DNA of 64,000 nucleotides from an uncultured delta proteobacterium. GTDB lineage: Bacteria; Desulfobacterota; Binatia; UBA9968. Location of the stretch: assembly GCA_963737905.1 (NCBI GenBank), contig CAVTUQ010000022.1, forward strand, positions 1 to 64,000, read 5' to 3'. Under the pieces are notes generated by a model. That model saw only the letters and a list, made by a program, of their open reading frames with translations, was not told the DNA's origin and did no database searches. How positions within the stretch are numbered: position 1 is the first letter of the stretch; each line of letters begins with the position of its first letter. This document shows, piece after piece, positions 30,096 to 54,311 of the stretch. The translations under genes and the position numbers were made by a program.

Positions 30096-30098
30096 TCG

Positions 30099-31625: not shown

Positions 31626-31823
31626 ATGGAGTTTCTAAAAAGGTTGGTAGTCGAGGAAGAGGGGCAAGGCTTGGTGGAATACACCTTGATCGTCCTTCTC
31701 GTCGCATTGGTTTTCTGGGTTGCCGTTAAAGGTACAAACGCTGATCAGGCGCTGTCAAACACCTGGACCAGCATCGTTGGCTGTCTTAACGCCGGTACTG
31801 CTGCCGGTTGTGGCGGATCATAA
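31626..31823 (+). CDS. flp: Flp (type IVc) pilin
   Basis: EEEG|QGLVEYTLI prepilin motif plus hydrophobic helix; GGGGGTGA RBS; first gene of the tad locus. Confidence 0.93.
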   Translation: MEFLKRLVVEEEGQGLVEYTLIVLLVALVFWVAVKGTNADQALSNTWTSIVGCLNAGTAAGCGGS

Positions 31824-31841
31824 GCATTTGCGTAGTCCGAT

Positions 31842-31877
31842 CTCGGGGGCAAGAAACGGCCGATTCTTGCCCCCGAG
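31842..31877 (+). terminator. Post-pilin stem-loop (mRNA stabiliser or partial terminator)
   Basis: Perfect 14-bp inverted repeat CTCGGGGGCAAGAA/TTCTTGCCCCCGAG, with no U-tract. Confidence 0.65.
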
Positions 31878-31940
31878 GCAGAAGTAAAAGGAATTGTCAG
31901 GGTTTCGGTCAAAAACTGAATGAAGTAATGGCGTCGTAAA

Positions 31941-32489: not shown

Positions 32490-32557
32490 CCAATAAACTA
32501 GCTCGGGAGCCGATAAGTAACCGAAATTTCTAAAATCTGCACAGAAGAGGAGCTGTT

Positions 32558-33391
32558 ATGCAAAATAGGCTAAAAATTGCGCTCGTTGTCGCCGTATTCT
32601 TCGGATTGATCGCGGCATACGGGATCTATAACTTTCTTCGTCAGCAGCGGCAGGCCGCCGAGGCCCTGAGGCAAGAAACTCAAAACGTTGTGGTGGCTGC
32701 CAAGGAAATCCCCGCGGGCACGGCCATCAACGACGACATGATCAAGAAAGGCATGGTCAAGGCTGTTCAGTGGCCGAAAGCATCTGTACCCACCGGCTCT
32801 TTCTCTTCACCCGAGCAGCTGGTGGGCAAGACCAATCGGGTAAAGATCATGGCGAATGAACCCATCTCGGAGTCGCGTCTGGCTGGAGAAGGGGCGGGTT
32901 TAACTATTCGGCTGGAGGCGGGTAAGCGGGCGATGGCCCTTAAGGTGGATGAGATCATCGGAGTCAGCGGCTTTATCGTTCCAGATGATCGTGTGGATGT
33001 GATTGTGACTACGACGCCGCCGGGCAAACAGAACCAGGACGACAAGATTTCCAAGATCGTGCTGCAGAACAAGCGAGTGCTCTCTGTGGCACAAAGCGTG
33101 GAGCAGAAAGACGGCAAGCCCCAGGTAGCTCGGTCGATCACGGTTGAGGTGACGCCTGAAGAGTCGGAGAAGCTTTCGCTTGCGACGCAAGAAGGGCAGA
33201 TCGTCCTCGCGTTACGGAGCATAGGGGATGACGCGGATGCAAAGACAGCCGGAAGCAACAAACGGGATCTGCTTGCGGTTGCGGCGCCGGCCCGTAAAGG
33301 CGGAGGGAGTCGCCCTGTAATCGCCCAAGCTCCGGAGAAATATCGGGTGGAAGTGCTTCACGGCAGTGACAGAAAAGTGGTGGAATTCTAA
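32558..33391 (+). CDS. cpaB: Flp pilus assembly protein CpaB/RcpC
   Basis: N-terminal TM, SAF domain (VVVAAKEIPAG), GVSGFIVPDDRVDVIV. Confidence 0.92.
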   Translation: MQNRLKIALVVAVFFGLIAAYGIYNFLRQQRQAAEALRQETQNVVVAAKEIPAGTAINDDMIKKGMVKAVQWPKASVPTGSFSSPEQLVGKTNRVKIMANEPISESRLAGEGAGLTIRLEAGKRAMALKVDEIIGVSGFIVPDDRVDVIVTTTPPGKQNQDDKISKIVLQNKRVLSVAQSVEQKDGKPQVARSITVEVTPEESEKLSLATQEGQIVLALRSIGDDADAKTAGSNKRDLLAVAAPARKGGGSRPVIAQAPEKYRVEVLHGSDRKVVEF

Positions 33392-33409
33392 GTGGGAAGG
33401 GGAGCATTC

Positions 33410-34921
33410 ATGAAAAAGCGCAAGGTTATGTGGACAAGGGTAAGTGGTTTTCTGGCCGCAACGGCTTTGGTTTCGTTCTGCTTGGTTGTCTCTAGCAGCG
33501 GCTCAGCAGGCTACACCAACGATCTCTGTAACAGTCAACAAGTCAATGGTGTTTCGGCTCGCCGAGCGAGCCAAACGAGTCTCCGTCTCGCAACCCGGCG
33601 TTGCGGACGTGGTGGTCGTTGCTCCGAGTCAACTTCTGATCAACGGCAAAGCCGTGGGTACAACATCGCTGATTGTTTTCAATGAAAAGGGAGACGTCGC
33701 CAATTACGATCTTGATAGTTCTCCCCGATGTCGCCGCGCTGCGAGGCCAACTGCGCTTACTGTTCCCCAATGAAAAGGTCGAAGTTCGACGTCAGGGCCC
33801 TCCCTTTTATTAAAGGGCGAAGTCTCCAATGAAGTAGTTTACGACAAAGTCCTGGAAATAGCCCAAACTTATATTCCGCCAAAGCCGCCGAAGGAAGTTG
33901 CACCCTCCACAAGCACGAGTGTCAATGTCAGCAGAACTAGCTCCGTGCGACTTCCCCCAACTGGGACTGCATTTGCGGGCGGAGGGCAGCTAGCCTTCCT
34001 CGAGGAAGAATCGATGACCGATAGCGACAGATGGGGCGACAAGACGAAAGATCGACGGAATTATTGATCTGCTGACGATCAAAGAAGTTCGGCAGATCGA
34101 GCTGGACGTTATCGTTGCGGAAGTTTCGACTCCTCAAGCTGAGAGAGATCGGATTTGATTTCTCGCCAGCAGGCTGGAAACACGACTTCCAATACATTTC
34201 TAGGCACCCAGTCCGGGTTTGTACCACCACTTCCGGCAGTCGCGGGTGCCTCCGGCTTTTTCCGGTATGTCAACGGTTCATATTCTCTGACTACCTTGTA
34301 CCGCATGCTTCAAAACAAAGATGTCACCGAGATACTCGCTCAGCCTCGACTTGTTATGAAGAATGGCCGAGCAGGCGGTTTTTTGGCGGGTGGAGAGTTT
34401 CCAGTAGTCCAAACTCTGTCGGATTCGTTCTCGGTCGAGTTCAAGCCCTTCGGTGTGCGGCTCGATTTTGTTCCGACGCTGAATTGGTCCGATCGGATTG
34501 ATTTGAGAGTTTTTCCTGAAGTGAGTGAAATTGACCAGAGCGGTCTCGGTTCAGGGAGTTCCCGGGTCTCAAGGTGAGGCGAACTGTAAACCGCGTTGAG
34601 ATGGGAGAAGGCGAGAGCCTGGTGATCGCGCGGTCTGCTCGACCGACAGAATTCTCAAAGATCTAACCAAGTTTCCGCTCCTTGGGTGACATACCTATCT
34701 TAGGTACGCTTTTTAGGAGCACGCGCTTTAGAAACCAGGAGACTGAGTTGGTGTTTGTCATCACTCCGCGGATTGTCAAAACGATGAAGCCCGGTGAAAA
34801 ACCGCAGCTTCCTTCGTTGGAAAAGTATGACGACCCGGATATTCGCCAGATTCCGCTTCCCGGAACGTCAGGACAAAGATCGACTGATCGACCAGGGGCC
34901 CCGGGAGCGACCATTCCTTGA
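33410..34921 (+). CDS. cpaC: Tad secretin CpaC/RcpA, heavily frameshifted
   Basis: Fragments: RVSVSQPGVADVVV...GKAVGTTSL, LAQPRLV...FLAGGEFP...FKPFGVRLDF, GDIPILGTLFRS...ETELVFVITP. Confidence 0.85.
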
Positions 34922-34992
34922 AGAGTCATGTGACATCGGTGTTCTGAGCCGCGTACTGGGATCAACGACGTAGGGGAAATGAAACAAGCATC

Positions 34993-36223
34993 ATGAAGCT
35001 GCCCATTTATCTGATCGGTGAAGACAGTCTGGCTCTAGCCTCATTGAGACAACAGCTGGAGAAAGAGCCGGCTTTTTTCATCGAGTCAAGGGTCCAAAAC
35101 TACGCGGATGCTTTTGATCATTTACGCAGCAAGAGCGGGCCGATCGTTGCTGTGATTGACCTCAATCGCGATGAGGAGCGAGCCTTCGCCGTGGCGGCAG
35201 AGATCAAATTCAAACTGTCCAACGTCCGTTTGGTCATGACGTCGCCCGATGACAATCCTCAGACTCTCCTGCGGGCGATGAGATCCGGGGCTGAAGAGTA
35301 TTTGACCCAGCCTTTCAATTGGCCAGAGGTCTTGAAGTCTTTCGATCATATCCGAAAGAAGATAGACGTCCATGTCTCGCCCGGTCGAGGCGTCGAGCGG
35401 GGCAAAATAATTGCGGTCTCGTCAAACAAAGGCGGAGTGGGTTCCACCACCCTCGCAACGAATCTTGCCTCGAATTTGGCAGGTCAAAACAAATCAGTCT
35501 GTCTGGTCGACCTGGTTTTGCAATTTGGCTCGGTGACGAGTTTCTTAAATATCGATGCGTCGTACACCATTTTAGACTTGGCGAAAAATGTCAAACGAAT
35601 TGATCCTCTGCTTCTCGACGGCTCCCTAGTTAAACATAGCTCCGGTGTCAGAGTTCTTGCAGAGCCCTTCTACGCTGAAGATGCCCGAAGAATTACCCCA
35701 TCCGATATCGACGAGATTCTCGATGTGTTGGCTCAATCCTTTGATTTCGTTGTTGTTGATACCGCGAAAGAATTCGATGAGATGCTGGGATTGGTTTTAG
35801 ACAAAGCAGGGACTCGTTCTTTTCGTTACGGAAATGGATGTACCGTCGTTAAAGAGTGCCCATAGAGCGTTCGAGCTGTTCGAACGCATGGGTATTTATG
35901 ACAAAAAGATCCGGCTTATTTTGAATCGCTACGTCAAAAGTAAGCTCATGAGTCTCGAATCCGTCGAAAAGGCCCTTGGCGTTAAGGTGTTTTGGACACT
36001 CCCAAATAATTATCCAACTGCGATTGCGGCTGTCAATCAGGGACTGTCGATTGAAGAGTCCGACCCGCGATCCGACATTGCCGATAGCTATGCGGGGTTG
36101 ATGACTGCTGTGCTGGAAGCTTTCAAGTATTCCGGGCTCGCAACGATGCGAGACGACGAGGACGAAGATAAGAAATCTGGCCTCCTTGGCCGTTGGATTC
36201 CGATGCGAGGGCTACTCAAGTAA
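34993..36223 (+). CDS. cpaE: CpaE/TadZ (REC-like domain + MinD/ParA ATPase), frameshift near 35810
   Basis: RAMRSGAEEYL, SNKGGVGSTT, FVVVDT; continues DVPSLK...LILNRY...AVNQG in the next frame. Confidence 0.88.
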
Positions 36224-36238
36224 GTAAGAGAGGACTCA

Positions 36239-37630
36239 ATGAAAAATCCACCGTTCGAATCCGATAAAGACAAGTGGGAAATTCAAAGGGGCGGCAACTT
36301 CGACGGTCTTAGAACCCCTCTGCGACCCATGCAGGCTGGGAATCCGGACGCGATTCTTCAGGATTTGCGGTTGCGAATTCACCGGCGGTTAATCGACACC
36401 TTGGATCTCACCAAGCTTTCAGCCTTGGAAATGGAAAGTGTCAAGGTCGAGATCAGGCGAATTCTTGAGGATATGGTCATGGCTGAAGCCATTCCTCTTA
36501 GTCGTGCGGATCGGGACCGTTTGGTCTCGGACGTTCAGCATGAGGTATTTGGGTTGGGACCTTTAGAAACCCTAATGAAAGACCCTGAAATCGCCGACAT
36601 TCTGGTCAACACACATAGTCATGTTTTTGTGGAACGATACGGTAAACTTGAGAAGACCGATGTCCGCTTTCGCGACAACGCCCACCTGATGCAGATTATA
36701 GAGCGGATCGTAACCCGAGTGGGGCGACGAGTAGATGAAAGCTCGCCGATGGTCGATGCCCGACTGGCGGATGGGTCGCGCGTAAACGCGATTATCCCGC
36801 CATTGGCACTGGATGGGCCAGTTCTTTCGATTCGCCGATTCGGCACGGACCGTTTGACGATCAACGATCTGGTTCAATTCAACTCGGTGCCCGCAGAAAT
36901 TGCTGAAGTGGCGGCGGCCTGTGTGAAGTCACGCCTAAACATTTTAGTTTCCGGAGGAACCGGGGCTGGAAAAACAACTCTCCTTAACTGTCTGTCGAAC
37001 TACATTCCGGAAAACGAGCGTATCGTAACCATTGAAGACTCCGCGGAACTGAAGCTGCAGCAGGAACACGTAGTGCGGCTGGAGACCCGGCCCCCCAACA
37101 TTGAGGGACAGGGTTCAGTGACGCAGCGGGATTTGGTGCGCAATGCGTTGCGTATGAGACCGGACCGAATCGTCATCGGTGAGGTCAGAGGCGGCGAAGC
37201 GTTGGACATGATGCAGGCGATGAACACTGGACATGACGGCTCGATTAGCACCATTCATGCTAATAGCGCGCGCGACGCGCTATCGCGTCTGGAGACGATG
37301 ATGTTGATGGCCGGTATCCACCTGCCAGAAAGAGCTCTAAGAGAACAAGTTGCCTCAGCCCTGGATGTTATTGTGCAGTTATCGCGCCTCAGCGACGGTA
37401 GCCGAAAGGTCGTCGAGTTTACCGAAGTTAGCGGTATGGAAGGCAGCACGATAACGACACAGACAATTTTCAAGTTCGAGCAACGAGGCGTCGAAAACGG
37501 TAAGGTCTTGGGAGACTTTGTGGCGACGGGAGTGATGCCCTCGTTTATGGATCGGCTGGAGCGGTATGGGTTTAAAATTCCGAATACTCATTTTCTGCCG
37601 CTGTCAATGACAGCGAAAAGAAGGGCGTGA
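36239..37630 (+). CDS. cpaF: Tad pilus assembly ATPase CpaF/TadA
   Basis: [39 protein letters not shown]. Confidence 0.95.
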
Positions 37631-38604
37631 TGAACCTACTACTGATTGTATTGTTTTCCTTTCTCGCGGCGATGTCGCTTATCATAGTGATGTTCTTCGT
37701 GCCTATGGCGGTGCAAAACTCGCCGCAGGCCAGGATCAAAAGACGGCTCACTACGATCGGCCGTGCCGGATATGCTTCCAGAGCGGACGTACAGAACCTT
37801 TTGAAAAGCTCTCTGTACAGTGACGTTCCGTGGGTCAATGCGCTGCTATCCAGAGTCCAGTTCGCCAAGCATCTCGATTTACTCCTTGAACGGGCCAATG
37901 TTGACATGACATTAGGTCTGTTTATTTTGTGTTCTGTTGTCGCCAGCGGGGTTGCCATTTTTCTTTTTTTGATTGTGGGTCAGCCATTTCCCCTAGCCGT
38001 TGTTGTGGGGTTGATCGCGCTTGTCTGCCCCTACGCCTATCTTAAGTATATTACGTGGAAGCGAATGAGACGTTTTTTGGAACAGATGCCAGATGGCTTG
38101 GACATGATAAGCCAGAGCCTCCAGGCGGGGTTGGGCTTAACCCAGGCAATGGTTTTCGTCGCTAAGGAGATGCCTGATCCTCTCGGCACAGAGTTTTCTG
38201 TTTTCATCGAGGAGGTCAATCTCGGTCTTCCTCTGGCAGACGCATTAAAGAAGCTGGAAGAGCGTATGGCTTTGCCTGAAGTGAGGCTTTTCAATACAGC
38301 CCTTCTAGTCCAGCGGGAAGTCGGCGGAAGCTTAGCTGAATTACTGAACAAGCTGGCTGACATCATTAGAGACCGCTTTCGAATTGAAAGATTGATCAAA
38401 AGCTTGACCGGACAGAACCGAATGAGTGCCTGGACCGTCTGCTCCATTCCGCCATTTCTGGGCGTGTTTATGTTTATTAGGGAGCCTCAGATGATGAATG
38501 AGATGTTAACTGATCCCATGGGTCGAGCAATGCTGGCTGCGGCGCTGGTTTTAGAGATTCTCGGAATAATTGTTTTCCGAAAGCTCATAAAAGTTCACAT
38601 CTAA
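37627..38604 (+). CDS. tadB: Tad platform protein TadB (T2SSF domain)
   Basis: [10 protein letters not shown]...[15 protein letters not shown]; position after cpaF. Confidence 0.92.
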
Positions 38605-38614
38605 GCGGGGTATT

Positions 38615-39550
38615 ATGGAAGCATTAATCGCCATCGGAATATTCGCCTTGGTTTTTGGGGTTATTTATTTCACGCTGGCATCGAGAGCGCCGGTAGCTGA
38701 AGAAGCTATTCAAAGACGATTGGACAACATCGCCGCTCAGCCCAAGACAGCGGCTCGGCTTCGCTTGTACGACGCCAAGGAAGATACCTTTTGGGAGACT
38801 GTCGCTAACTTCTTTCTGGGTGACAAACGGGAGATACCTGGGGCCTACTCGAAAGTGGGGAGACTCTTGCACCAGGCTGCCTACCGAGGGGAGAGAGCAA
38901 TACGTATTTTTTGGGGCCTTCGTATTTTTCTTGGTCTCGCATTCTCATTTGGCGGATTGGTGCTGGCGTTTTTCTCGAAGGCGTCTACTCAAGATGTCAT
39001 TTTGTTGGGAGGCGTCGGCGGAATCGTCGGCTACATGTTGCCTTATCTGACTGTCCGTCGGAAAGCAAAAATGCGGGTCTTGGAAATGAAGGAAACACTA
39101 CCCGACACCTTGGATCTGATCGTGGTTTGTGTGGAAGCGGGAATGGGTGTGGATGCGGCTTTGAATCGCGTGGGTAAAGAGCAGGCGGACCAGGGGCTGG
39201 CGATGGGCGAGGAGTTGTTGCTCGCAACCCAAGAATTGCAAGCGGGTGCAGTGCGCAAGGAAGCGTTGACTCGTTGTGCCGACAGGATCGGGATCGAAGA
39301 ATTTCGTGGGCTCATCACTTTTCTGACCCAAACCGAAGAGTTGGGGGGCAGCATAGCGCGCTCCCTAAGAGTGTATGCGTCGACGATGCGCGAAAAAAGA
39401 AGCCAGGCGGCGGAGGAAGCAGCGCGCAAAGCGGTGATAAAGCTTATTTTCCCACTGGTCTTTTTTATTCTCCCGGCCATCTTTATCCTCTTATTGGGTC
39501 CGGCTGCTCTGAGTATTATGAAGACATTATCGAGTCCCCTTAAGGGATAG
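38615..39550 (+). CDS. tadC: Tad platform protein TadC
   Basis: LPDTLDLIVVCVEAG, AEEAARK, FPLVFFILPA. Confidence 0.92.
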   Translation: MEALIAIGIFALVFGVIYFTLASRAPVAEEAIQRRLDNIAAQPKTAARLRLYDAKEDTFWETVANFFLGDKREIPGAYSKVGRLLHQAAYRGERAIRIFWGLRIFLGLAFSFGGLVLAFFSKASTQDVILLGGVGGIVGYMLPYLTVRRKAKMRVLEMKETLPDTLDLIVVCVEAGMGVDAALNRVGKEQADQGLAMGEELLLATQELQAGAVRKEALTRCADRIGIEEFRGLITFLTQTEELGGSIARSLRVYASTMREKRSQAAEEAARKAVIKLIFPLVFFILPAIFILLLGPAALSIMKTLSSPLKG

Positions 39551-43231: not shown

Positions 43232-44132
43232 TGCAGCGACCGACTTATTGCTAGGTGTACAGAATGAGGATGGAGGGTGGGGTTACTTCAAGGGGCAACA
43301 CAGTAATACAGAGTCAACGTCATTTGCACTGATGGCTTTGAAGTCAATGGAAGGGAAGGCATTCATTGAGCCGAGGACTGCGGGGCTGAAGTGGTTGCTC
43401 CGGCGCCAGAAAGAGGACGGTAGTTTTCCCCTCAACGACACATCGAACCAAAGCTCATGGACCACTCCTATTGCGGTTTTAGCGCTTTTATCTTTTCAAG
43501 ACCAAAGCGAACCTGCCTTGAGGGCGGCGAAATGGATTTTGACGCAAGAGGGAAGAAAGCCCGGCTGGGTCGCATCGCTCTTGGTCCGGTTGTCCTTAAT
43601 AAAGAAAATGACAGAACTTGATCCCTACCTCAGCGGGTGGTCTTGGACCGCTGGAGCTTTCAGCTGGGTAGAACCAACCAGTTACTCGCTAATGGCACTA
43701 AAGAAGTTGAAGCGGAGTTTGGTGGGATACGGGACTAATTGTGAGGAAAGAATTCGGCAGGGCGAAATGTTGATCTACGATCGGATGTGTGAAAACGGTG
43801 GGTGGAACTATGGAAACTCCAGAGTCTTGGGGGAAGCCCTGTGGCCGTACCCGGATGTAACAGCGGTGGCTTTGATCGCGCTTCAAGACCGGGCGGCGAG
43901 TGAGGCCAATCAAACAAGTTTGCGTGCTTTGGACAACATGCTGCAGGAAGCTGCTTCCGGCACCGCCCTAGGCTGGGGTATTCTTTGTTTAACGCTCTAT
44001 AATCGGGAAGTAAGAGAATGGAAGAAGCTTCTGGTGAAGAATTTTGAAAAGACGAGGTTTCTAGGTGAAACAAAGGCGGTGGCATTGGCCTTGCTCGCGT
44101 TTGGAAATGGGGCTAGTTTGTTTCACGTTTGA
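43224..44132 (+). CDS. Prenyltransferase/squalene-cyclase (QW) repeat protein
   Basis: QNEDGGWGY, QKEDGSFP, CENGGWNYG repeats; WVEPTS. Confidence 0.8.
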   Translation: MIDAATDLLLGVQNEDGGWGYFKGQHSNTESTSFALMALKSMEGKAFIEPRTAGLKWLLRRQKEDGSFPLNDTSNQSSWTTPIAVLALLSFQDQSEPALRAAKWILTQEGRKPGWVASLLVRLSLIKKMTELDPYLSGWSWTAGAFSWVEPTSYSLMALKKLKRSLVGYGTNCEERIRQGEMLIYDRMCENGGWNYGNSRVLGEALWPYPDVTAVALIALQDRAASEANQTSLRALDNMLQEAASGTALGWGILCLTLYNREVREWKKLLVKNFEKTRFLGETKAVALALLAFGNGASLFHV

Positions 44133-44138: not shown

Positions 44139-45131
44139 ATGATGAATCGCAGGGAGTTTATCAAAGTTTCGGCTGCAGCGTCGCTCGCCTCTCTTGTCGG
44201 GTGCCGGCCATCAGTTCGTTGGGACCGAGATGCTTATCGGAAACCAGCGATTTCTCGGATCGCGATTCTGGAGGCCAGGAGTTATCAAGCTTCGCTGGAG
44301 GATATTATTCTTCGTGGAATCCAGTTGTTCAAGCTTGATCTAAAGGGGAAACGAATCGTACTGAAACCGAACTTGGTCGAGTTTGACCCCAAGGGCGTAA
44401 TTAACACCCATCCCGCGGTGATCGAAGCGGCCATAGGTTCGTTCAGAAGCTTGGGCGCCCGGGAGGTTGTGGTCGCCGAGGGACCCGGCCATCGTCGTGA
44501 CAGCGAGTACCTCCTAACGGCTTCGGGGATTTATGATGTGATCAACGAACACAGAGTTCGCTATGTGGATCTCAATACGGACGATGTGCGTCGCACGAAA
44601 CTGCGTAGTAATTTTACCAACCTGAGGGAATTATATCTTCCCGAAACGTTGTTCAATGCGGATTTGCTGGTTTCGATGCCGAAGTTAAAAACCCATCACT
44701 GGGCCGGTGTGACTCTTTCCCTAAAGAACATGTTCGGCGTTGTTCCCGGGTCGGTCTATGGGTGGCCAAAGAACGCGCTCCATTGGGCAGGTATTCACGG
44801 CAGCATCTTAGACATTAATAGTTCATTACCGATTCCGCAATTTGCCATTGTCGATGGGATTGTTGGAATGGAGGGGAATGGGCCACTCCAGGGACAAGCC
44901 AAACAGAGCGGCGTCCTGATCCTAGGTGATGACTTGGTTGCTGTAGATGCCACGGCGGCGAGGATCATGAAGATCGAACCGAGAAAAATCGAGTACCTCG
45001 AGATGGCTGACCGATTTCTGGGAAACATCCGTCACGAGAAAATCGAACAAGCGGGCGAACGATTGGAGCGATTTCAGCAGGACTACCGCGTTATCGAGAA
45101 CTTTCAGGAGCTCAAGGTACTGACAGGATAA
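44139..45131 (+). CDS. DUF362 protein with Tat signal (possible Tat lipoprotein)
   Basis: NRREFIK twin-arginine motif and LVGC; LKPNLV, NTHP, PKLKTH, LSLKNMFG, MEGNGP, VAVD. Confidence 0.85.
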   Translation: MMNRREFIKVSAAASLASLVGCRPSVRWDRDAYRKPAISRIAILEARSYQASLEDIILRGIQLFKLDLKGKRIVLKPNLVEFDPKGVINTHPAVIEAAIGSFRSLGAREVVVAEGPGHRRDSEYLLTASGIYDVINEHRVRYVDLNTDDVRRTKLRSNFTNLRELYLPETLFNADLLVSMPKLKTHHWAGVTLSLKNMFGVVPGSVYGWPKNALHWAGIHGSILDINSSLPIPQFAIVDGIVGMEGNGPLQGQAKQSGVLILGDDLVAVDATAARIMKIEPRKIEYLEMADRFLGNIRHEKIEQAGERLERFQQDYRVIENFQELKVLTG

Positions 45132-45158: not shown

Positions 45159-45197
45159 AAAGAAAAGAGCCGGATAAAAGTCCGGCTCTTTTCTTTT
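45159..45197. terminator. Bidirectional intrinsic terminator
   Basis: AAGAAAAGAGCCGGA-loop-TCCGGCTCTTTTCTTTT between convergent operons. Confidence 0.85.
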
Positions 45198-45219: not shown

Positions 45220-46640
45220 CTAACCGGCCTGGTCGTCGGATGGTATCATCAGTTTTTGCCCGATGTAGATGTAATGTGGGTTCTTCACAGAATCCCTATT
45301 GGCATCGTAGATCTTTTCCCACTTGTACGGCGAATTGTAGAAGCGTTCAGACAGTTTGCTGAGAGTATCGCCCGCCTTTACCGTATACTCCTGGGATGCT
45401 GGACTTGTTGCCTTGGCGGTAACGGGAGTTGCTGCCGACCTTTCAGTCGAAAACGGAATCTGTTTGGCAACCGGCTTTGCTTTTTCCTCCGCTGTGACGG
45501 CCTTGCCTTTGGCTTCCGCCGGGAGCGGCTTTTTCTTTGACTATCTCTGGGGCGGGTAGGGGCTCGGGGCGTGACGGTGCCGCCTTTGCTACCGCAGCGG
45601 ACTTGTACAACCGATCTATGAATCCAGAGCTGTCCAGCTCTTTTATGAAAGTAAGATCTACGAACTGCTCAGGCTTGGCTGACCGGGCATTGGGGTCTTT
45701 GACCCCTAGCTCACGCAGGATGATTTGAATACCCTTGAGAGTGGGGTAAGGTTTCTCTGGAACCAGGTTGAGCGCAATAGAGTCGTAAGTGTCATCCAAT
45801 ATGTCCTTATCATCGGTCCGGAGATATTTGGTGAGAATCTCCAATGTTTCTCTGCGATGGGTTTTAGCGTAGTGGATTCCCTCAACATAGGCTCGCATGA
45901 AATCGCGAACGAGCTCCGGTTTCGATTTGATCAGCGATCTGGTCGTTGCTATGCCGGTATGTTGATATTCGAGGCCGAGCATCTGGAGGTCGGCTAACAT
46001 TGGATACCCCAATTTCTTGGCTCTGAGGGTCGTGGGCGCCGAGAGCATCGCCCCTTGTATTTTTCCTGCTTCCAGCGCTGCCAACAATGCCGGAACGTTT
46101 CCGAGTTGGAGAATGGTTAGATCCTTATTGGGGTCAAGGCCATATTTCTCCAATGCGTAACGCATCGCAAAATCTGTCGATGATCCAAAGCGAGTGACGC
46201 CAACAGTTTTACCTTTGAATTGGTCAGGCCGGCTTATGCTTTTGTCCGTATACAACTGGAAAGTGAGGGTGTTAATCACGCCGGCAATCATCACTGCGTC
46301 GGCGCCGCGCAGATTGCTTTGCATGATCGCGGCGCCTGCCATATGCGCGAAGCTCACGTCTCCGGCGATCAACGATTGCGCGGACGTACTTCCCGATTCA
46401 ATCAAGACTGGACTGGACGTCCAAGCCGTATTTTTTGAAAAACCCTCTTCTCTTGCGTGACCCAAAGGGGGGCGTTGTTACCGGATATCGAGCTGTATGC
46501 AACCATGACTTTTTGTAGGGGGACCGTTCCCGCTTTATCCGCAGCCGCCAAATTGCGCGACATCCGGCGATCGTGAGCGCGAAAAAGAATAGCAACGCCA
46601 AGATCAAGAGCCCGGGTTTCATCTGCAAAGTTGGGTTCAT
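45220..46640 (-). CDS. NMT1/THI5/SsuA-like solute-binding protein fused to a C-terminal LysM domain, frameshifted
   Basis: GVTRFGSSTD, YQHTG, PEQFVD...GFIDRLY; Pro/Ala/Lys linker; manual translation of the end gives EYTVKAGDTLSKLSERFYNSPYKWEKIYDANRDSVKNPHYIYIGQKLMIP, stop at 45220-45222. Confidence 0.8.
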
Positions 46641-46754
46641 TTTCTCTCCTTCAAAGGGCTAACCGCGATTGGGTTTTTGATTCTGTTGACGGTTTAAACT
46701 CCGCCGAGCCTATCATCGTTGATCTCCTTGTTTCAAACCCAACAACAGATTGTC

Positions 46755-47540
46755 TCAAGCCCGATTGAGACGAGCCATGGCTGCCTTCAAGCTGGCCCTC
46801 ATTCGTTCGAGGGAACGTGCGAGTTCACCAATCTCATCGTTGGATTGAAAAGAAACGGGCGTATCCAACTGCCCCCTGCTTATGTCGTCGGCGATCGACT
46901 TCAATTCTAATAGGGGACGAATCGTTTTGCTCGCAATCATGGTTGAAATCGCTATGCCGATGGCGAGGCAAAGCGCGATTAGGCCAACTATAGTGAGCAA
47001 AGTACCGCGAACATCCTGTTGCACCGTTTCGGCCCAAAGTCCCACGTGAACGGCTCCTAATTGGCCATCGAGAAGCGGAGCCTGCGTTTCGTAAACCGAC
47101 TGACCACGCACGCTGGTTGTTCGTGCTTTAAACGTACGCTGATCCGCCGTAGCGCCGGTTTCTTTCAATTCTGCTGGAAAGGGTTGAAGACTGGTGGCGA
47201 CAATCTCGCCTTTGGGATCTTGAATGTAGGCATATGCCACTCCGTCCAGTCGCCCATATTTGGCAATTAGTGCGTCCAGTTCCAGAGCGTTCTTTCGTGA
47301 CACATAACCGGCCGCAGCATCACTTAGGTTCGCGGCAATGGCCGCTGAACGTAGATCGACTTGCCTTTGGAGTGCATTCCCAGTCAGGTAATACACGATT
47401 CCTATAACGCAGAGACCCAAGAGCAGGATAAGGCCACCGAAAGCGGTCACAAACTTCCACCTGAGACTGCTTCCCTGCCAGCCGGGGCTTGCGGGCGTAG
47501 CTACTTTCGTACTTTCCAAAGAAAGGGATTCCTGTGGCAT
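46755..47540 (-). CDS. Two-TM receptor with HAMP domain and no output domain
   Basis: TM, periplasmic domain, TM, then IRPLLELKSIADDISRGQLD...DEIGELARSLERMR; ends 12 aa later. Confidence 0.85.
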   Translation of the reverse strand: MPQESLSLESTKVATPASPGWQGSSLRWKFVTAFGGLILLLGLCVIGIVYYLTGNALQRQVDLRSAAIAANLSDAAAGYVSRKNALELDALIAKYGRLDGVAYAYIQDPKGEIVATSLQPFPAELKETGATADQRTFKARTTSVRGQSVYETQAPLLDGQLGAVHVGLWAETVQQDVRGTLLTIVGLIALCLAIGIAISTMIASKTIRPLLELKSIADDISRGQLDTPVSFQSNDEIGELARSLERMRASLKAAMARLNRA

Positions 47541-47560
47541 GCCGCCTCCTGTAAAACAGG

Positions 47561-48355
47561 TTAGAATTTCTTGAAATTGGAAATCTCTTGAAGCATGGAT
47601 TCTTCAACCTTCTGCCTCAGCTTCCCGTCAGAAATCTCTTTGCTGATTAGGCCGATTAAGTCGTCCAGCTTGGCTTCGGGGAAATTGTCTTGAGACTCTC
47701 CCAGACTATCGATCTGATCTCGCAGTACCAACGGGGCCATGGGACCCATGGCTTCCGTGAGGATGCTCGTGAGCCGATCAAACAAAGCAGGGGGGACGAT
47801 ATCGGTCCGGGTTTTAGAAGAAGGGTTGACAATTTCCACCAAACCAGACTTGTGGAGGTTGAAGATAACTTTTGCTGTGTAGGCGAACGGTATACGTAGA
47901 AGCTCGGCTATATCCTGTACGGTTCGCGAGCCATCGATCTTGCTCAACACTCGCCACCCAACATAGGGCACGGTAATAGGGCCACTTTGTGCCTCGCCAG
48001 GATCGGCAATCCGAAAGACAGCTTTTCCTGAGGGGATGACTTCCAATATGGTCTCCCACTCTCGGCTCATAGCCTTCACTTCGTCGAGAATTTCGGCTGA
48101 CGTTTTTTTAATGGTGGTAATGGGAACAGTCCCATTTGGCATTAAAGTAAAGACCCCCTCGCCCCACGTCACGGGATACAGCAGCGCCTTCTCGCCCTCG
48201 CCAATAGGGCAGGTAGCATGGATGATGTTACCCTCGGCAATATATACTTCGACTGTCTCTTTGCCGCGAGAGAGTTTCAGAACGCCTGACTTTTTGCCGC
48301 CGGTGGCGAGAAGTAGGATGTCGTTGAGGCTAATCTGCGCTAAATTGCCTTGCAT
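47561..48355 (-). CDS. DUF4388 (PATAN-like) protein with winged-helix-like middle and helical C-terminal domain
   Basis: MQGNLAQISLNDILLL...KSGVL...GNIIHA...WGEGVF; WRVLSKIDGSRTVQDIA; MGPMAPLVL. Confidence 0.82.
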   Translation of the reverse strand: MQGNLAQISLNDILLLATGGKKSGVLKLSRGKETVEVYIAEGNIIHATCPIGEGEKALLYPVTWGEGVFTLMPNGTVPITTIKKTSAEILDEVKAMSREWETILEVIPSGKAVFRIADPGEAQSGPITVPYVGWRVLSKIDGSRTVQDIAELLRIPFAYTAKVIFNLHKSGLVEIVNPSSKTRTDIVPPALFDRLTSILTEAMGPMAPLVLRDQIDSLGESQDNFPEAKLDDLIGLISKEISDGKLRQKVEESMLQEISNFKKF

Positions 48356-48389
48356 ACGGATAACTCACTAGGAAATGATGAGCTATTCA

Positions 48390-48716
48390 TTACCGATCTT
48401 CCAGAGATCGGCGCGCGTTCGTGCCACTGGGCGTCTTTTTAATTTGGTCAACCACATCGTCGTGACCATTGAGCGCGGTCTTGAGCGTCTTGATAACGGC
48501 AAGACTCTTGCTGATTCCGACCATTTGCTCAAGGGTCGATTTGATCTGGCTCTGTAACAGGTCGACCTCCTCCGAAGAAATACTTTGGAGTTGGGACTGG
48601 AGTTCATCATAGAGCCGGGTGATGCTATCGATCTGTCCTAGGGACTCCGTTTTTTGAGTGATTTCCTCATAGAGCCGGGAGATGTCCTCGGTTAGATTTT
48701 GCAATTCATTTTTCAT
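48390..48716 (-). CDS. Small coiled-coil hypothetical protein
   Basis: 108 aa with heptad pattern and repeated RLYEE/RLYDE; tightly packed in the operon. Confidence 0.7.
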   Translation of the reverse strand: MKNELQNLTEDISRLYEEITQKTESLGQIDSITRLYDELQSQLQSISSEEVDLLQSQIKSTLEQMVGISKSLAVIKTLKTALNGHDDVVDQIKKTPSGTNARRSLEDR

Positions 48717-48734
48717 AGAGTTGACCAGCCTTCT

Positions 48735-50357
48735 TTATTTTGTTTTTTTTTCTGACGCTTTGTCGGCAGGATTGTGCGATAGACCCGCTTCAACCGTTTT
48801 GGGTTTGTCAACACTTGAGACGGAGGGTGCTGAAAGAGTTTCTCCTATGTTGGTTTCGCCAGTCGGAGATGCCTTCTTCGATGTCGTCTCCGAGGAGTTT
48901 GAGGATGGCGACGCTGAAGAGGCGCTGACGGGTACAGCAGACTTGGAGGAGGAGAAAAAATAGAATCCCGAAAAAATCAGAGTCAGCAGTAGGAATGCGG
49001 CAACCACCCCCGTCTTTAGATTGAGCGGACTTTGCCTAGAATAAAGATCGTACTCCCCGTAGTCCTTTATGAGCTTTTTGAGCTTCCGATCGAGTTCTCC
49101 GTCTTTTCGTTGTGAGGGAAGGTTCGGTTGAGTCGGCAGATGTACTGTCGCCGATGCGTTAACTTGCGGTGTGGCCGTTGAAGGTTCGAGTCCTGGCTGT
49201 TTCTTGGCTTCAGCTCTTGAGGTTGAATTTGGCAAGATAGTGAATTCGCCGTAATCTTTTATGAGATCATCTAGGAGCCGTTGGTCAAAGTTTGCTTCTT
49301 CGGAAGTGGCCATGTGCGTTTGACCCGTAGTTTCCACTGTTTCTGTCTCCGAAACGGCTGGGTGCACTTCCATTTCTACGGTACCTTTGAATTCTTCAAA
49401 AATGGCTTCATGACTCGGTGATGACTCGTTGCGCGTATCGGCAAATTCAGCGATTATTTCCCGTGGCTGGAGTGATGTTGTGCTATCGTCAAAGAAAATC
49501 GTGTCGGTCGCCTTGTCTGAGAAGGGTTCATTGGGCTCAAAGTCGATTTCTGTCGAAGCCGGATGAAGAATGGCCTCAGTTTGCTCTAGATCCTCACTCG
49601 TAAGATTGGCAGGAGTTTCGCTCGTAAATCTCTCGGGTAACTCGTACTCAATTTTCGGCAAGTCTGCTGCTAGCTCTTGATCGCTAGTAGGCGTTTCTGG
49701 GAGCGTCTCAACAGGTTTCGGAAAAACAGGCTCAATGTCTATTGCCGGAGCCGGATGGAGAACCACCTCAGATTCATCTGGAGCTTCACGGATCGCGACA
49801 ACACCAGTTTCGCGCGCAGATCTCTCTGGTAAGGCGTGCTCGATTTCCGGCAAGTCTGCTAGCTCTTGTTCGTTCGTCGGGGACTGAGGGATGATCGCAG
49901 CAGGCTTGGGAACAATAGGAGTCCAGGCCGGCGTATTGGCAAACGGTAATACTTCCGGGACGCTCTTGGCTTCTTTGATCAAATTGATGATGCGCCGGAA
50001 TTTCAACAGGGTCCCCACCTGGGCTATAGAATGAACCGCTATGGGTTCAACCAGCGTGGTGAGCCTGCCCTGTTCCAAACTCTGCGCCTCCACCAGTTGC
50101 ACTGTCTTTTTTAGTCGGCTCATTCGCTGTTTGATTTCGGTCAGCGCCCTGAGCCGTCGTTGCATCTCGCCCAGCCCCAGGGACATTGTTTGCAATCTTT
50201 GATCAATCTGGGAGACTTGTTCAAGGGTAAAGCCTTCCACACGTTCACGAAGGCCTTCGATGGAGTTGACCACCTTGTCAATGGACCGTGTGGTCGGCGT
50301 ACGTTGTGGCAAGGACTGGGTCTCAAGCGGATTTTTTTCTTTTTGGGCCGTGAGCAT
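48735..50357 (-). CDS. Hypothetical protein: coiled coil, acidic disordered repeats, single TM near the C-terminus
   Basis: 540-aa ORF; E/P/T-rich centre, two LIKDYGE motifs, TM GVVAAFLLLTLIFSGFYFF. Confidence 0.75.
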   Translation of the reverse strand: MLTAQKEKNPLETQSLPQRTPTTRSIDKVVNSIEGLRERVEGFTLEQVSQIDQRLQTMSLGLGEMQRRLRALTEIKQRMSRLKKTVQLVEAQSLEQGRLTTLVEPIAVHSIAQVGTLLKFRRIINLIKEAKSVPEVLPFANTPAWTPIVPKPAAIIPQSPTNEQELADLPEIEHALPERSARETGVVAIREAPDESEVVLHPAPAIDIEPVFPKPVETLPETPTSDQELAADLPKIEYELPERFTSETPANLTSEDLEQTEAILHPASTEIDFEPNEPFSDKATDTIFFDDSTTSLQPREIIAEFADTRNESSPSHEAIFEEFKGTVEMEVHPAVSETETVETTGQTHMATSEEANFDQRLLDDLIKDYGEFTILPNSTSRAEAKKQPGLEPSTATPQVNASATVHLPTQPNLPSQRKDGELDRKLKKLIKDYGEYDLYSRQSPLNLKTGVVAAFLLLTLIFSGFYFFSSSKSAVPVSASSASPSSNSSETTSKKASPTGETNIGETLSAPSVSSVDKPKTVEAGLSHNPADKASEKKTK

Positions 50358-50431
50358 AACGCCAAATCTTTATGCGGAAAACTAGTACCTGTGTAGAAAC
50401 GGGTGGTTACTCTAAAGTAATGAGGTGGGAA

Positions 50432-50446
50432 GCAAAATAGTTGCCA
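50432..50446 (-). promoter_or_regulatory. Sigma54 promoter for the 50357-45220 operon
   Basis: Minus strand TGGCAACTATTTTGC; perfect dyad TGTTCA-tct-TGAACA at 50530-50544. Confidence 0.7.
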
Positions 50447-50602
50447 GCGTAATGATGTGGAAAAGGTTCGTGATTTCAGCAACCTAAGGACAGGTTTTTC
50501 CTCAAATTGCTAGATTATTCCCACAACTCTGTTCATCTTGAACAAAATTGTACATAGAGGCTTAATTTGCATAACTTTAAAAGGTAAAATCTATCATTAG
50601 GA

Positions 50603-51399
50603 TCAACGTGGACCCAGGATCAATAGCCGGCGTCGCGCATCCAGAGAAACATGAAAATGTTTTAGGAAATCCAAGCCCAGCAAGCCCTCAATGCGCGGGT
50701 CTGTTGAAAAATCGTGAATGGACACGACCAGATCATGAACCTCAGCGTCACCTACCTTGAGAGATCCCAATCGGGCCAGCGGCACGGTAATAACGCCCCC
50801 CACCGTTCCCACCTTACTTGCCCCTAGCGCGCTCAGAGCTAGGTTGCTTGCGATGCGACGAGACACAACTGTAATCGTGGCCCCGGTATCCAACGCCAAG
50901 CTGGCCTTTAGAGCACCATTGAACGTGACGGGAACAATGACCGAAGCACCATTCATTACGACCGGTACGGCAATCGTATTCGTTCCGGAACTTCCGGCGG
51001 GTGATGACGGGACAATGACTTGATAGAGGCAACGAGGGCTCTGCTGGAAGCGACTTAAAAAACTTTTCGAGTTTTCTCGATTCGTCAGTATCGCTCTGTT
51101 TCATCCACCCAACCGTACCGTTCTTCGCTTTAACCAAGTACCACCGTGCGCTTCCTCCACCCAAGGTATTCGCCAAGGGAGAGATCTCGTCGCCCTTCTT
51201 GAGGATTGCGACCACGGCTGAAGACTCATCGGGATCCGTGAACAGTTCTATTTCCCCCACGGTGGGAAGGCGGACCGTGGCAGCCGGTGACTGTTTACAA
51301 ACAGAGCATAGTACGAAAGCAGTAAAGATCAGGGCCGCTTTGAGCTTCGTAAAGGTCGTCTCCGCAGAATGTTTTTTTGAACGGACCGAGCAATTTCAA
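50603..51399 (-). CDS. Exported retropepsin-like aspartyl protease with N-terminal SH3b-like domain, frameshifted
   Basis: LDTGA and GLLGLDFL (clan AA); upstream fragment VVAILKKGDEI...WYLVKAKNGTVGWM; hydrophobic signal-like stretch. The start is approximate. Confidence 0.78.
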
Positions 51400-52700
51400 T
51401 GTGGCTCGGAGCGCCCGGCGTCAGCTTGGGAGAGGGAGAACTTTTCGATTTTCCTATACAGTGTCCGCGTGGATATGCCGAGCGCCTCGGCGGCCTTCGC
51501 CTTGTTGCCGTTGGTTTGACGCAGTGCCTCCTCAATGAGATTTTTCTCGCCCTCCTCGATGTTGCGAATGGCTTTTGTCCCAATTTCCTCACGGTGCCCA
51601 GTGGCGTAGTTCTGTAAGTTCATTGGGAGATCGCTCAGCGTGATGTAATCGCCGTCCGAAACCATCACCGCACTTTCAACAACGCTTCTAAGTTCGCGAA
51701 TGTTTCCCGGCCAGGGATAATCCAGGAATAGGGCCTTGGCGGAACTGCTGACTTTCTTTAATGGCTTGCGAAACTGGCTACAGGCTTGGTAGACAAAATT
51801 GGCCACGAGTAAAATGATATCCTCTCGCCTGTCGTGCAAAGGTGGGAGGATAATTCGCGCACTATTGAGACGAAAATACAAGTCTTTTCTAAAGCCATTA
51901 TTCTGGATCGCCGCATCCAGTTCTTTGTTAGTTGCTGCGATAATTCGAACATCGCTGGTCTTGGGTGTGGATTCACCTACCTTGTAGAATTCACGCGTTT
52001 CGAGAAAGCGTAAAAGTTTGAGCTGGATAGCTGGGGCGAGATCACCTATCTCGTCTAGAAATAGTGTTCCCCCTTCCGCGGCTTCAACAAAGCCTTTCTT
52101 GTTTCGATCGGCTCCAGTGAACGCACCCTTCACATACCCAAAAAGCTCGCTTTCAACTAGCGTCTCGGGAATGGCTGTCATATTGCAACCCACAAAGGGT
52201 TTATCGGCACGTGGTCCCAAAGAATGAATGTACTGAGCCATCACTTCCTTCCCGGTTCCTGTTTCGCCTGTCACGAGAACCGTGATGTCGTGCATGGCAT
52301 AACGGTTTGCGAGGTTCAGAACCTCGTGGAATTGTGGCGTTTCCCCGATCATCAAAGGTGTTTTGACGGAATGGGGAGATTTGACATCGCCGGAATCCGC
52401 AGCGTGACCGAGCAGGTTACAAAGAGGACGGGAATGTTTAGGATGGTAACAAACAACTGTTATTTCCGATGGTGTCGTACGTATCCGATCGAGGAAACTT
52501 CCCCAGATCGTGCCTTGGCAAAGCGTAACGTCGATCAATACAAACTTAATTTGGTCGGCGGGAAAAGCCGAAAATACCCGCTCGGCTTCGTCGACAGTTC
52601 GGCTCAAATGGACAGAGAAATCGCGGGCCTCCAGCTGCTTGGCAATCGGAGCGGGAGGAGATTCTACGGACTGAATAATCAGCGCGAAAGACTTTGGCAT
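51396..52700 (-). CDS. Sigma54-dependent enhancer-binding activator with atypical receiver-like N-terminus
   Basis: [35 protein letters not shown], Fis-type HTH. Confidence 0.93.
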
Positions 52701-52719
52701 CCAAAAACCACTCTCGTTA

Positions 52720-54162
52720 TTAAGAGCCGGGTAGAATAACCATATTCTCTAGCGAATCATCCAGCAGTTGACTGGTAATCCGCGGAGGCGTGCCAAGATA
52801 ATTACTAGCCGCAATCACGTGTTCCGCTATAAACTTCGGATGGAATCCGGCAAATGGGACCTTGTGTTTTAGGTAAAACGAGTTGAGAAGATACGCCATG
52901 ATATCTTCAGAGAATGCCAGGCCGTAGGACTCGCAAATCCGACGAAAGATCTCTCTATATTCATCCGCTGTTGGTGGATTAATCTTTAATTTGTAATGGA
53001 CACGGCGAAGCTGGGCAGGATCCATCAATTCTTCAGGTGGGAAGTTGGTTGCAAAAATGACTAATTGATCAAAGAGCAGGGCAAATTTTTTCCCCGTGTG
53101 AAGTGTGAGGTAATCAATTTTTCGCTCCAAAGGAAAAATCCAGCGGTTGAGCAATTCGTGAGGCCGTACCCGCTGGCGGCCAAAATCGTCGATGACGAAT
53201 ATGCCGCCGATGGCCTTCATCTGTAACGGGGCTTCGTAATATTTCGAATGGATATCGAAATCCAAATCTAGCATTTCAAGAGTCAGCTCGCCGCCAGAAA
53301 TGATATACGGTCTCCGACAACGAACCCAACGGGGATCGTATTCCATATGGGGCAAGAACATTGGATGACTGCTCCCGTTAGCACCGTTGGAGTTGGTTGA
53401 CAAAGCCACATGGACCGAGGGATCGAAGATCTTGATGATCTGCCCGTCGGCTTCGATGCAGTAGGGTACATAGACCGGTTGCTCGAAGGCTGAGATGAGA
53501 CCTTCAGCGATAGAGGTTTTTCCATTTCCCGCGGCTCCGTAGAAAAGAATGGCTCTGCCTGAGTTCGACGCCGGCCCGAGTTGTCTAATGATATCCTCGG
53601 ATAGCACTAGATGAGAAAGTGCCTTTTTCAGCTTCTCCATGTTGATGATCTCATTGGTGATCGTCTGTTTTTGGACTTGAATCTGATAGGGTTCGAGTGG
53701 GACCGGCGCCGGACCAATGTACTCGCAGCGCCTGAGGGCTTCGCTTGCCCGCTCCTTGCCCGCGCTGGTGAGAGCATAGCGCATGACATTTTGGCTCTTC
53801 TCGGATGGACCGCGAATTTCAACGAGCGCCTCTTTCTTGGCGAAATCCAGCAAAGCTTCGACGACGCCTCGCGTCAATTTAATCTGCTCTGATATTTCCG
53901 GAATCGTCTGAACGGCGGAGATGTACATGATCCGCAGAACGGAGTTGAGGAGAAAGTTTGCTTCTAATCCGGTTTCCTCGATTGTCTTGGGGACCAAGGG
54001 AGGCTCTTGGAGGATGGACTCGAGTTTTTCACGGGTGATGTAGCCGAGAGCGATTAAGTTGTCGCCAATGCGGCCCCCGGCGATCTTCTGTTGATGGAGA
54101 ACCTTTTTTAGTTGGTCCTCATTAATAAAATTCTTTGCTAATAAAAGTTCGCCGATAGCCAT
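52720..54162 (-). CDS. AAA-type ATPase with N-terminal MshEN-like domain
   Basis: IGELLLAKNFINEDQLKKVLHQQ-KIAGG-RIGDNLIALGYITREKL; Walker A GAAGNGKTS; IDDFGRQR; ATN. Confidence 0.8.
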   Translation of the reverse strand: MAIGELLLAKNFINEDQLKKVLHQQKIAGGRIGDNLIALGYITREKLESILQEPPLVPKTIEETGLEANFLLNSVLRIMYISAVQTIPEISEQIKLTRGVVEALLDFAKKEALVEIRGPSEKSQNVMRYALTSAGKERASEALRRCEYIGPAPVPLEPYQIQVQKQTITNEIINMEKLKKALSHLVLSEDIIRQLGPASNSGRAILFYGAAGNGKTSIAEGLISAFEQPVYVPYCIEADGQIIKIFDPSVHVALSTNSNGANGSSHPMFLPHMEYDPRWVRCRRPYIISGGELTLEMLDLDFDIHSKYYEAPLQMKAIGGIFVIDDFGRQRVRPHELLNRWIFPLERKIDYLTLHTGKKFALLFDQLVIFATNFPPEELMDPAQLRRVHYKLKINPPTADEYREIFRRICESYGLAFSEDIMAYLLNSFYLKHKVPFAGFHPKFIAEHVIAASNYLGTPPRITSQLLDDSLENMVILPGS

Positions 54163-54311
54163 CTTTTAAGCCCCTTGCCAGAAAAAGGTTGTTTTTACCT
54201 AGCGTAGCGATTATCATTTCTCGGTATGCACCGCAAAAAACCGTTTCATTATAAGTTACCTGGGGATGCTGTCAAGCAAAGCGTCTTCAATCGTCGGATT
54301 GGAAGGGTGGC

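Follow-up and report, generated by a model that had tools for sequence, protein, structure and literature searches.

A two-unit gene cluster of an uncultured soil bacterium that may couple a c-di-GMP receptor-type ATPase to sigma-54-dependent expression of envelope proteins

Eight consecutive, co-oriented genes (g1-g8) on the minus strand at 45220-54162 of a contig from an uncultured soil bacterium (CAVTUQ010000022.1; the whole stretch of DNA analysed, 64,000 nt, is called the window) may form a lineage-restricted regulatory module of two transcription units, in which the first unit would control the second and the second would encode an envelope complex. We assign this reading a probability of about 40%. 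The first unit, predicted to be transcribed with sigma-70, would supply an AAA+ ATPase of cyclic di-GMP (c-di-GMP) receptor type (g1), a transcriptional activator with a degenerate receiver (g2) and an exported SH3b-retropepsin protease (g3). The second, predicted to depend on sigma-54, would supply a membrane-anchored acidic helical protein (g4), a small helical protein (g5), a PATAN adaptor (g6), a Cache-HAMP protein (g7) and a periplasmic solute-binding protein (SBP) that may be tethered to peptidoglycan through its LysM domain (g8). An initial annotation of the same DNA had described the block as a kinase-free envelope-signalling system with its own sigma-54 activator. Its eight co-oriented genes are borne out as open reading frames (ORFs) on the minus strand and its domain list largely holds for g1, g2 and g4-g7, but frame breaks in g3 and g8 had been silently read through, and c-di-GMP, apparently the most obvious input given the MshEN domain of g1, had been overlooked. 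The parts are real and conserved in close relatives; that they make up one kinase-free signalling system is a guess.

Intergenic gaps are 18-34 nt within g1-g2 and g4-g7 and 116 nt before g8, and the single long gap, of 245 nt, lies ahead of g4. A sigma-70-type sequence, TTGACA-16-TATAAT, stands 86 nt upstream of the g1 ATG (54248-54275, minus strand), agrees with the consensus at 12 of 12 positions and probably serves as the promoter of g1. Within the long gap, 75-89 nt 5' of the g4 ATG, lies a candidate sigma-54 -24/-12 promoter, TGGCAACTATTTTGC (50432-50446, minus strand), whose TGGCAA-N5-TTGC carries one mismatch to TGGCAC-N5-TTGC and keeps GG and GC at the exact spacing. The same neighbourhood occurs in one related genome, on a 9-kb contig labelled 'Deltaproteobacteria bacterium' (L002), where CTGGCA-N5-TTTTGC is kept while the remainder of the spacer has diverged. 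Also conserved between the window and L002 is an upstream block (50523-50553, minus strand) with tandem ACA(A/G)NNTTGT repeats spaced about two helical turns, a candidate activator binding site; a regular-expression search finds it once in the window, with no second copy near the Tad or flp genes. A sigma-54 promoter ahead of the last five genes, as first annotated, is plausible because of its position and its conservation in L002, not because of the number of such matches. Together, the spacing, the sigma-70 consensus before g1 and the conserved sigma-54 site in the long gap support two transcription units, g1-g3 under sigma-70 and g4-g8 under sigma-54. Beyond the g8 stop, a hairpin and T-run read directly from the sequence (AGAGCCGGA-cttta-TCCGGCTCT-TTTCTTT, 45159-45189, minus strand) is a likely intrinsic terminator, shared with a converging plus-strand operon and absent from the terminators and signals of the window scan. 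Other sigma-54-like matches stand just 5' of genes at 28500-28514(-), 31205-31219(-), 31490-31504(+), 24054-24068(-), 24252-24266(+) and 44080-44094(+), the one at 24054 being perfect. The genes behind these sites include a GGDEF-EAL gene (27012-28382), a REC-GGDEF/histidine-kinase pair (28893-31094) and the flp pilin gene, among others, and sigma-54 may govern c-di-GMP turnover and pilin genes together with the cluster.

The first gene of the cluster, g1 (52720-54162, minus strand, 480 aa), encodes an MshEN_N domain followed by a winged-helix-like region and an AAA+ ATPase. Residues 3-53 match NF053729, the NCBIfam model of the MshE-related c-di-GMP motif, at 56 bits (cut-off 38), and the N-terminus aligns with the solved N-domain of MshE (5htl, E 2.3e-5). 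MshEN domains are recognised by two motifs of the form [RKPN]hGxxhhxx[GAS]hhxxxxhxxxhxx[QNKRYWST], 24 residues each, joined by 5 residues. In g1 these lie at 2-25 and 31-54 with the canonical spacer at 26-30; the relaxed motif departs at A2 and N11 in the first copy and at P54 in the second, although the layout is kept and the NF053729 score lies above its cut-off. In the 5htl alignment g1 keeps the equivalents of MshE G11, L25, L29, Q32, R38, G40, L54 and L58, and an MshEN_N domain is sufficient by itself for c-di-GMP binding (PMC5013675, section 12; Supplementary Tables 4 and 6). Pfam gives no match to g1 at E<=0.01. Following MshEN is an AAA+ core with Walker A and B motifs and invariant GxxGNGK(T/S), DDFGRQ and LNRW sequences. 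An AlphaFold2 model built from an alignment of 30 relatives has a predicted local distance difference test score (pLDDT) of 88.7, and Foldseek places it nearest to 8p49, an uncharacterised Pyrococcus hexamer, followed by Lon/RuvB ATPase modules. No T2SSE match was found in g1, and the fold is likewise not that of the secretion or pilus ATPases in which T2SSE follows MshEN. The family is large, with 3483 clusters at 50% identity matching at E<=1e-3 and 716 at 1e-30; 31 of its best 150 representatives match from within the first ten residues and therefore include the MshEN part, and relatives listed for g1 share 83-93% identity along 100% of its length. From these sequence features g1 is a probable c-di-GMP-sensing ATPase.

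Separated from it by 19 nt, g2 (51396-52700, minus strand, 434 aa) encodes a sigma-54 enhancer-binding protein, with Pfam matches to Sigma54_activat (2e-65), AAA_lid_14 and HTH_8 (1.3e-15), and with the GAFTGA loop intact and LFLDEIG present in the alignment with relatives from the PDB. It is the sole sigma-54 activator among the 59 window ORFs (12 + 47) covered by our domain scans. Its core is related to PspF (5nss, E 5e-54). PDB relatives cover the protein only from about residue 98-117 onward, and the preceding region (1-112) is atypical and receiver-like: it gives no match to the receiver model Response_reg (E<=0.01), and its acidic pair reads QS/HS in the window/L002 comparison. This N-terminal domain is probably a degenerate receiver. 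The cluster also lacks HisKA and HATPase_c matches and so contains no recognisable two-component pair. Indeed, the Pfam scan bears out the earlier statement that the block holds no permease, ABC_tran, kinase (HisKA/HATPase_c) or methyl-accepting chemotaxis protein domain, and among the 59 ORFs there are 0 matches to BPD_transp or ABC_tran, so that g8 is not accompanied by the permease and ATPase of an ATP-binding cassette (ABC) importer. 'Kinase-free' holds within the block, but one window cannot establish it, and one histidine kinase lies within the window at 28893-30095, outside the cluster and 15 kb off. At gathering scores Rfam has 0 matches in the whole window, and hence no c-di-GMP riboswitch. 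PADLOC reports no defence system: IetA is matched locally in the AAA part alone (<=36 bits), and RtcR-type models pick up the generic activator core.

The sigma-54 unit opens with g4 (48735-50357, minus strand), a 540-aa protein described here from its composition: a basic helical N-terminus, a Pro-rich middle whose residues 131-360 are acidic (50 D+E versus 13 K+R), two (L/M)xxxYG motifs, one hydrophobic, predicted transmembrane (TM) segment at 443-471 and a tail rich in Ser. It has no Pfam or NCBIfam match and no usable Atlas match. Its counterpart at L002:7168-8643 is 28% identical and conserves an FDQxLLxxLIKDYGEFTI motif and the TM segment. The 108-aa product of g5 (48390-48716, minus strand) is helical and coiled-coil-like, reaches no Pfam or NCBIfam family above cut-off and is 56% identical to L002:8652-8978. 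The 264-aa product of g6 (47561-48355, minus strand) has a PATAN/DUF4388 domain at 2-100 (PF14332, 47.3 bits, cut-off 25) and a C-terminal DUF8082-like region; Atlas look-alikes of 263-264 aa that carry PatA_N and DUF8082 offer a lead only. Its 99 PATAN residues span 121 profile positions, so the alpha-clip insertion appears absent. A PDB sequence search with g6 gives 0 matches at E<=10, and an AlphaFold2 model made without an alignment is unusable (pLDDT 41.9). According to a preprint on PixE, its PATAN domain binds the N-terminal half of PilB1, the part that bears MshEN (bioRxiv 10.1101/2021.06.11.447907), and one protein of Myxococcus has both an MshEN and a DUF4388 domain (PMC5013675, Supplementary Table 4).

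The last two genes encode the predicted sensory parts. The 261-aa product of g7 (46755-47540, minus strand) has TM segments at 27-57 and 176-207 enclosing an sCache_3_2 domain (39.6 bits), then a HAMP domain (50.7 bits), and stops 9 residues past the HAMP match. It had been annotated correctly as a two-TM HAMP receptor without an output domain, but its periplasmic sCache_3_2 domain had been missed. The best 120 relatives are all short (232-270 aa, 68-92% identical) and share an invariant C-terminal helix. In a search of proteins up to 457 aa, no MCPsignal or kinase output follows HAMP in g7 or in 118 of these best 120, which carry Cache and HAMP only, and on this evidence g7 does not derive its short form from truncation of a kinase. 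Matches of g7 to YfiN and YfiR-associated kinase sensor models are weak (18 and 34.5 bits, far below cut-offs). The product of g8 (45220-46640, minus strand) is an exported NMT1/SsuA-type SBP fused to LysM, with NMT1 at 68.8 bits and a LysM piece that matches PRK11198 at 62 bits, below the cut-off of 134. Its relatives are intact NMT1+LysM proteins of 443-497 aa, and of the 119 listed, a count that excludes the 299-aa piece from the window itself, 109 carry LysM, so the fusion first annotated is real. A complex prediction for g7 (50-186) with the SBP domain (33-346) of P0392, a 471-aa relative of g8, scored 0.00 in two runs without controls and counts neither way.

There is a possible route by which these parts could work together. 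The activator g2, whose gene adjoins the g4 promoter and which may on that account act there, would most likely bind the upstream repeat at 50523-50553 and switch on the second unit. Protein partners, and not a cognate kinase in the cluster, would govern its activity; candidate partners are the putatively c-di-GMP-sensing g1 and possibly, by feedback, products of the second unit, as PspA acts on PspF. The second-unit proteins might form a sensing complex of inner membrane and periplasm, with cytoplasmic readout through HAMP to g6, g4 and g5, and g6 might in turn influence g1, on the model of PATAN and the MshEN-bearing N-terminus of PilB1, to which it binds. Put most economically, c-di-GMP, an envelope cue or both would act through protein contacts on g2, and so on sigma-54 transcription of g4-g8. 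A fuller version, in which MshEN_N-winged-helix-AAA+ proteins are a widespread c-di-GMP receptor ATPase, wired in this lineage to g2 and to a PATAN/Cache-HAMP/SBP module as a phosphorylation-independent loop that turns a periplasmic cue and c-di-GMP into sigma-54 transcription, is in our view improbable as a whole.

The layout of an activator, a sigma-54 promoter and helical membrane-associated proteins would equally suit a Psp-like envelope stress response, in which a kinase-independent activator drives the operon and g5 or g4 holds the activator until damage is sensed via g7 and g8. The kinship of the g2 core to PspF points the same way, as do the peptidoglycan-binding LysM and the exported SH3b-protease, which direct attention to the cell wall. 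However, no block gene, g4 and g5 included, matches PspA/IM30, PspB or PspC in Pfam or NCBIfam, the similarities of g5 are all below cut-offs, and g2 has an N-terminal domain that PspF is without. We consider this account quite improbable.

Several observations weigh against a module of two units under c-di-GMP and envelope control. The first-motif arginine of MshE, R9, which binding requires, is replaced by Ala in g1 and Q61 by Pro (key contact residues from PMC5013675, section 12); binding of c-di-GMP by g1 is uncertain for this reason. The N-terminus of g2 has the Asp57 equivalent, also in L002, and g2 may be phosphorylated by the window kinase 15 kb away or by kinases elsewhere in the genome. 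The window has 7 sigma-54 matches with at most one mismatch where its shuffled versions have 3.7 +/- 1.9, a number not above chance. Finally, what we observe is the domains and the operon layout, a promoter kept in L002, families that are conserved and intact, and homologues sited together in relatives; all contacts of the proteins with one another or with DNA, the binding of c-di-GMP and the physiological output have been added to these by inference.

To this must be added that the reading frames of g3 and g8 are broken here. The g3 gene (50603-51399, minus strand) is split over two frames, with SH3_3 (27.2 bits) in 50817-51395 and Asp_protease_2 (62.7 bits, cut-off 24.3) in 50606-51100. It has two frame breaks and a signal-like hydrophobic segment that lacks a standard in-frame start codon; the start is likely a TTG overlapping the g2 stop, with a shift at an A7 run. 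The retropepsin-like signature is recognisable within the Asp_protease_2 region as LDTGAT (DTGA), and the homologue at L002:6182-6946 is an intact 254-aa SH3b and protease ORF with MDTGSS. In g8 there are four frame changes. These breaks could mean that the cluster is decaying here, with g3 and g8 as pseudogenes of a system that no longer works in this genome. Between its breaks, however, g8 is nearly letter for letter P0392, with one visible substitution in an in-frame core of about 300 residues and none in the LysM part; such a pattern, four indels and hardly a substitution, is better explained by errors of sequencing or assembly. Other window genes are split or truncated as well: the cpaC secretin (33444-34577) into at least 2 pieces, tadZ/cpaE (34993-36223) into two overlapping ORFs, and a glycosyltransferase (1216-1812) whose match is confined to the first half of the profile. 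These cases point to an assembly prone to indels. With near-identical intact relatives within each frame and these further split genes, the breaks in g3 and g8 are most likely sequencing or assembly indels and not decay, which we hold to be very improbable.

Gene neighbourhoods give a mixed picture. We scanned g1 loci at one genome per species, obtaining at least 80 loci, among which only L002 has the same neighbours, in the order g1-g2-g3-g4-g5 and with a g1 of 64% identity. Its collinearity includes gatB (72% aa identity) and a SPOR gene and ends before g6-g8; with flanking housekeeping genes collinear too, the synteny may reflect relatedness only. In the other 79 listed loci, phmmer finds 0 with g3, g4, g5, g6 or SBP homologues nearby, and 5 have some sigma-54 activator within 10 kb. 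At 29 MshEN-type loci, with Pfam run on 144 of 149 neighbours (all except the 5 largest), 0 have DUF4388, Sigma54_activat, NMT1 or LysM within 2.6 kb; 3 of the 29 adjoin GGDEF/EAL genes. These absences, and the reach of the L002 synteny, also count against the proposed module.

Closer to the source lineage, best matches of g1, g7 and g8 are 67-93% identical, several of them named Candidatus Binatia. Homologues of g1 and g8 occur on contigs of the same size, at least 9 kb, in three cases (10942, 13176 and 143166 bp; 0.065 expected), and so do those of g7 and g8 (12901, 45434 and 182665 bp; 0.035 expected). The identical sizes place g1/g8 and g7/g8 on shared contigs in six other assemblies, and two of the shared contigs barely exceed the 8.9-kb cluster. 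In named NCBI records, which returned few accessions, the homologues of g7 and g8 have no adjacent accessions. Coincidences among contigs below 9 kb were dropped as evidence, being near chance level. As a separate observation, g1 and g7 homologues show four equal contig sizes below 5.1 kb (3894, 3905, 4769 and 5065) against about 1 expected; such contigs cannot hold both genes in the window arrangement, leaving chance, cluster-level bookkeeping or another gene order. Gene-order conservation thus stands for g1-g5 in L002 and for g1/g8 and g7/g8 on shared contigs, and is absent outside the lineage. Two of the three findings named at the outset as fatal to the idea, a truncated kinase and a gene order that is not kept, were examined, and neither refuted it.

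All of this bears on whether the genes form one system at all. Possibly g1 is a free-standing c-di-GMP effector ATPase beside an activator-controlled operon, its order kept through kinship. Its family is large (the 3483 and 716 clusters above) with heterogeneous neighbours elsewhere, and the L002 synteny reaches housekeeping genes, as that account would have it. It sits less easily with the 19-nt gap between g1 and g2 behind a single strong promoter, or with g1 and g8 homologues on contigs of just 10.9 and 13.2 kb in other assemblies; the 3 of 29 g1-type loci beside GGDEF/EAL genes fit a signalling role. We regard separate systems as unlikely, and conservation as weak evidence for a single one.

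More distant g1 homologues offer two further observations. In Chloroflexi (Anaerolineae) loci L037-L072, an ATPase without MshEN precedes, in 20-21 loci, a GDPD phosphodiesterase (about 10 nt 3') and a GH3-like protein (about 1.1 kb 3'), with GT2 and RecJ-like genes upstream; no functional lead came from these neighbours, which look like housekeeping synteny. In a Myxococcaceae locus (L031:5576-7030), a GAF-domain sigma-54 activator lies about 1 kb 3' of an MshEN-less g1 homologue on the same strand, the only other proximity of ATPase and activator seen among the matches listed.

The initial annotation had proposed a different flow of signal, in which a wall-tethered ligand sensor signals through the HAMP protein to DUF4388 on a localised scaffold, possibly with control of the neighbouring Tad pilus. 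Worked out on the present domains, the peptidoglycan-tethered SBP would bind a ligand and dock on the Cache domain of g7, and HAMP would signal by contact to DUF4388 on a g4/g5 scaffold. An SBP orphaned of any ABC partner among the 59 ORFs, a g7 with a periplasmic Cache and no output domain, and g7 and g8 homologues on shared contigs are what this proposal would lead one to expect, and a Tad/Flp locus does lie at 31596-39550. The PixE preprint also has cyanobacterial PATAN domains acting on pilus motors; yet the Tad ATPase (36239-37630) matches only T2SSE in Pfam, with no MshEN match, and it is the MshEN-bearing part of PilB1 that PATAN is described there as binding. Furthermore, the Tad locus is on the opposite strand with about 5.7 kb of other genes between, both sets converge on the terminator, the conserved block ahead of the g4 promoter has no further copy close to the Tad or flp genes, and the c-di-GMP motif of g1 is ignored. 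Control of the Tad pilus finds no support, and the proposal as a whole appears to us distinctly improbable.

The Tad locus itself begins with a Flp-type pilin ORF (31596-31823, plus strand) containing EEGQGLVEYTLIVLL and continues at 31941-39550 with a prepilin peptidase, RcpC/CpaB, a secretin, TadZ, CpaF and two TadB/C-like genes. Past it on the same strand are a DUF192 gene and several family-less ORFs, as far as DUF362 at 44139-45131. Farther away, an adenylation-carrier-thioesterase protein (10658-13288) is encoded within a polysaccharide gene cluster (1216-19544), and a Y2-type transposase with a phage-type integrase fragment (20122-21874, minus strand) lies at the edge of that cluster.

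If the proposed two-unit module is correct, g1 would extend the short list of c-di-GMP receptors by a new architecture, in a family spanning 716 clusters (E<=1e-30), an output-less HAMP receptor and a PATAN adaptor would feed a sigma-54 activator without a kinase, and conserved genes of an abundant, uncultured soil lineage would gain a role. If the genes are merely neighbours, what is left is an ordinary activator-controlled operon next to an uncharacterised ATPase. Neither the g1 architecture nor the cluster turned up as described in the literature that we searched.

Known systems resemble the cluster in part. FleQ/FleN and VpsR are c-di-GMP-responsive sigma-54 activators of surface and envelope genes, with FleN a partner ATPase that modulates the activator. 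The proposed c-di-GMP input to a sigma-54 activator is alike, whereas here the motif is on a separate AAA+ protein and the g1-g2 contact is putative. In YfiBNR, LuxPQ and TorTS, a periplasmic accessory or peptidoglycan-bound component controls a membrane protein with a periplasmic sensor and HAMP; g7, unlike these, has no GGDEF or kinase output, g8 is of NMT1/SsuA type and not a YfiR or LuxP homologue, and their binding is putative. PspF-PspA shares a kinase-independent activator, with a core homologous to that of g2, and a sigma-54 operon of membrane-associated helical proteins, but the cluster has no PspA/B/C, g2 has its extra N-terminal domain, and the operon adds PATAN, Cache-HAMP and SBP-LysM. 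PatA-type regulators (PixE, PixG, PatA) have the PATAN/DUF4388 protein-binding module of g6 and an association with MshEN-bearing partners, whereas g6 lacks a receiver, has a DUF8082-like C-terminus and has no chemotaxis-like or type IVa pilus genes nearby. The MshEN receptors MshE and PilB (Wang et al. 2016, PMC5013675) share with g1 the motif pair, the 5-residue spacer and most contact residues, but the motor of g1 appears to be a Lon/RuvB-like AAA+ module with a winged-helix-like insert and not T2SSE, its first-motif Arg is Ala, and its architecture is not in Supplementary Table 4 of that study. The cluster belongs to none of these compared systems and is a new arrangement of known parts.

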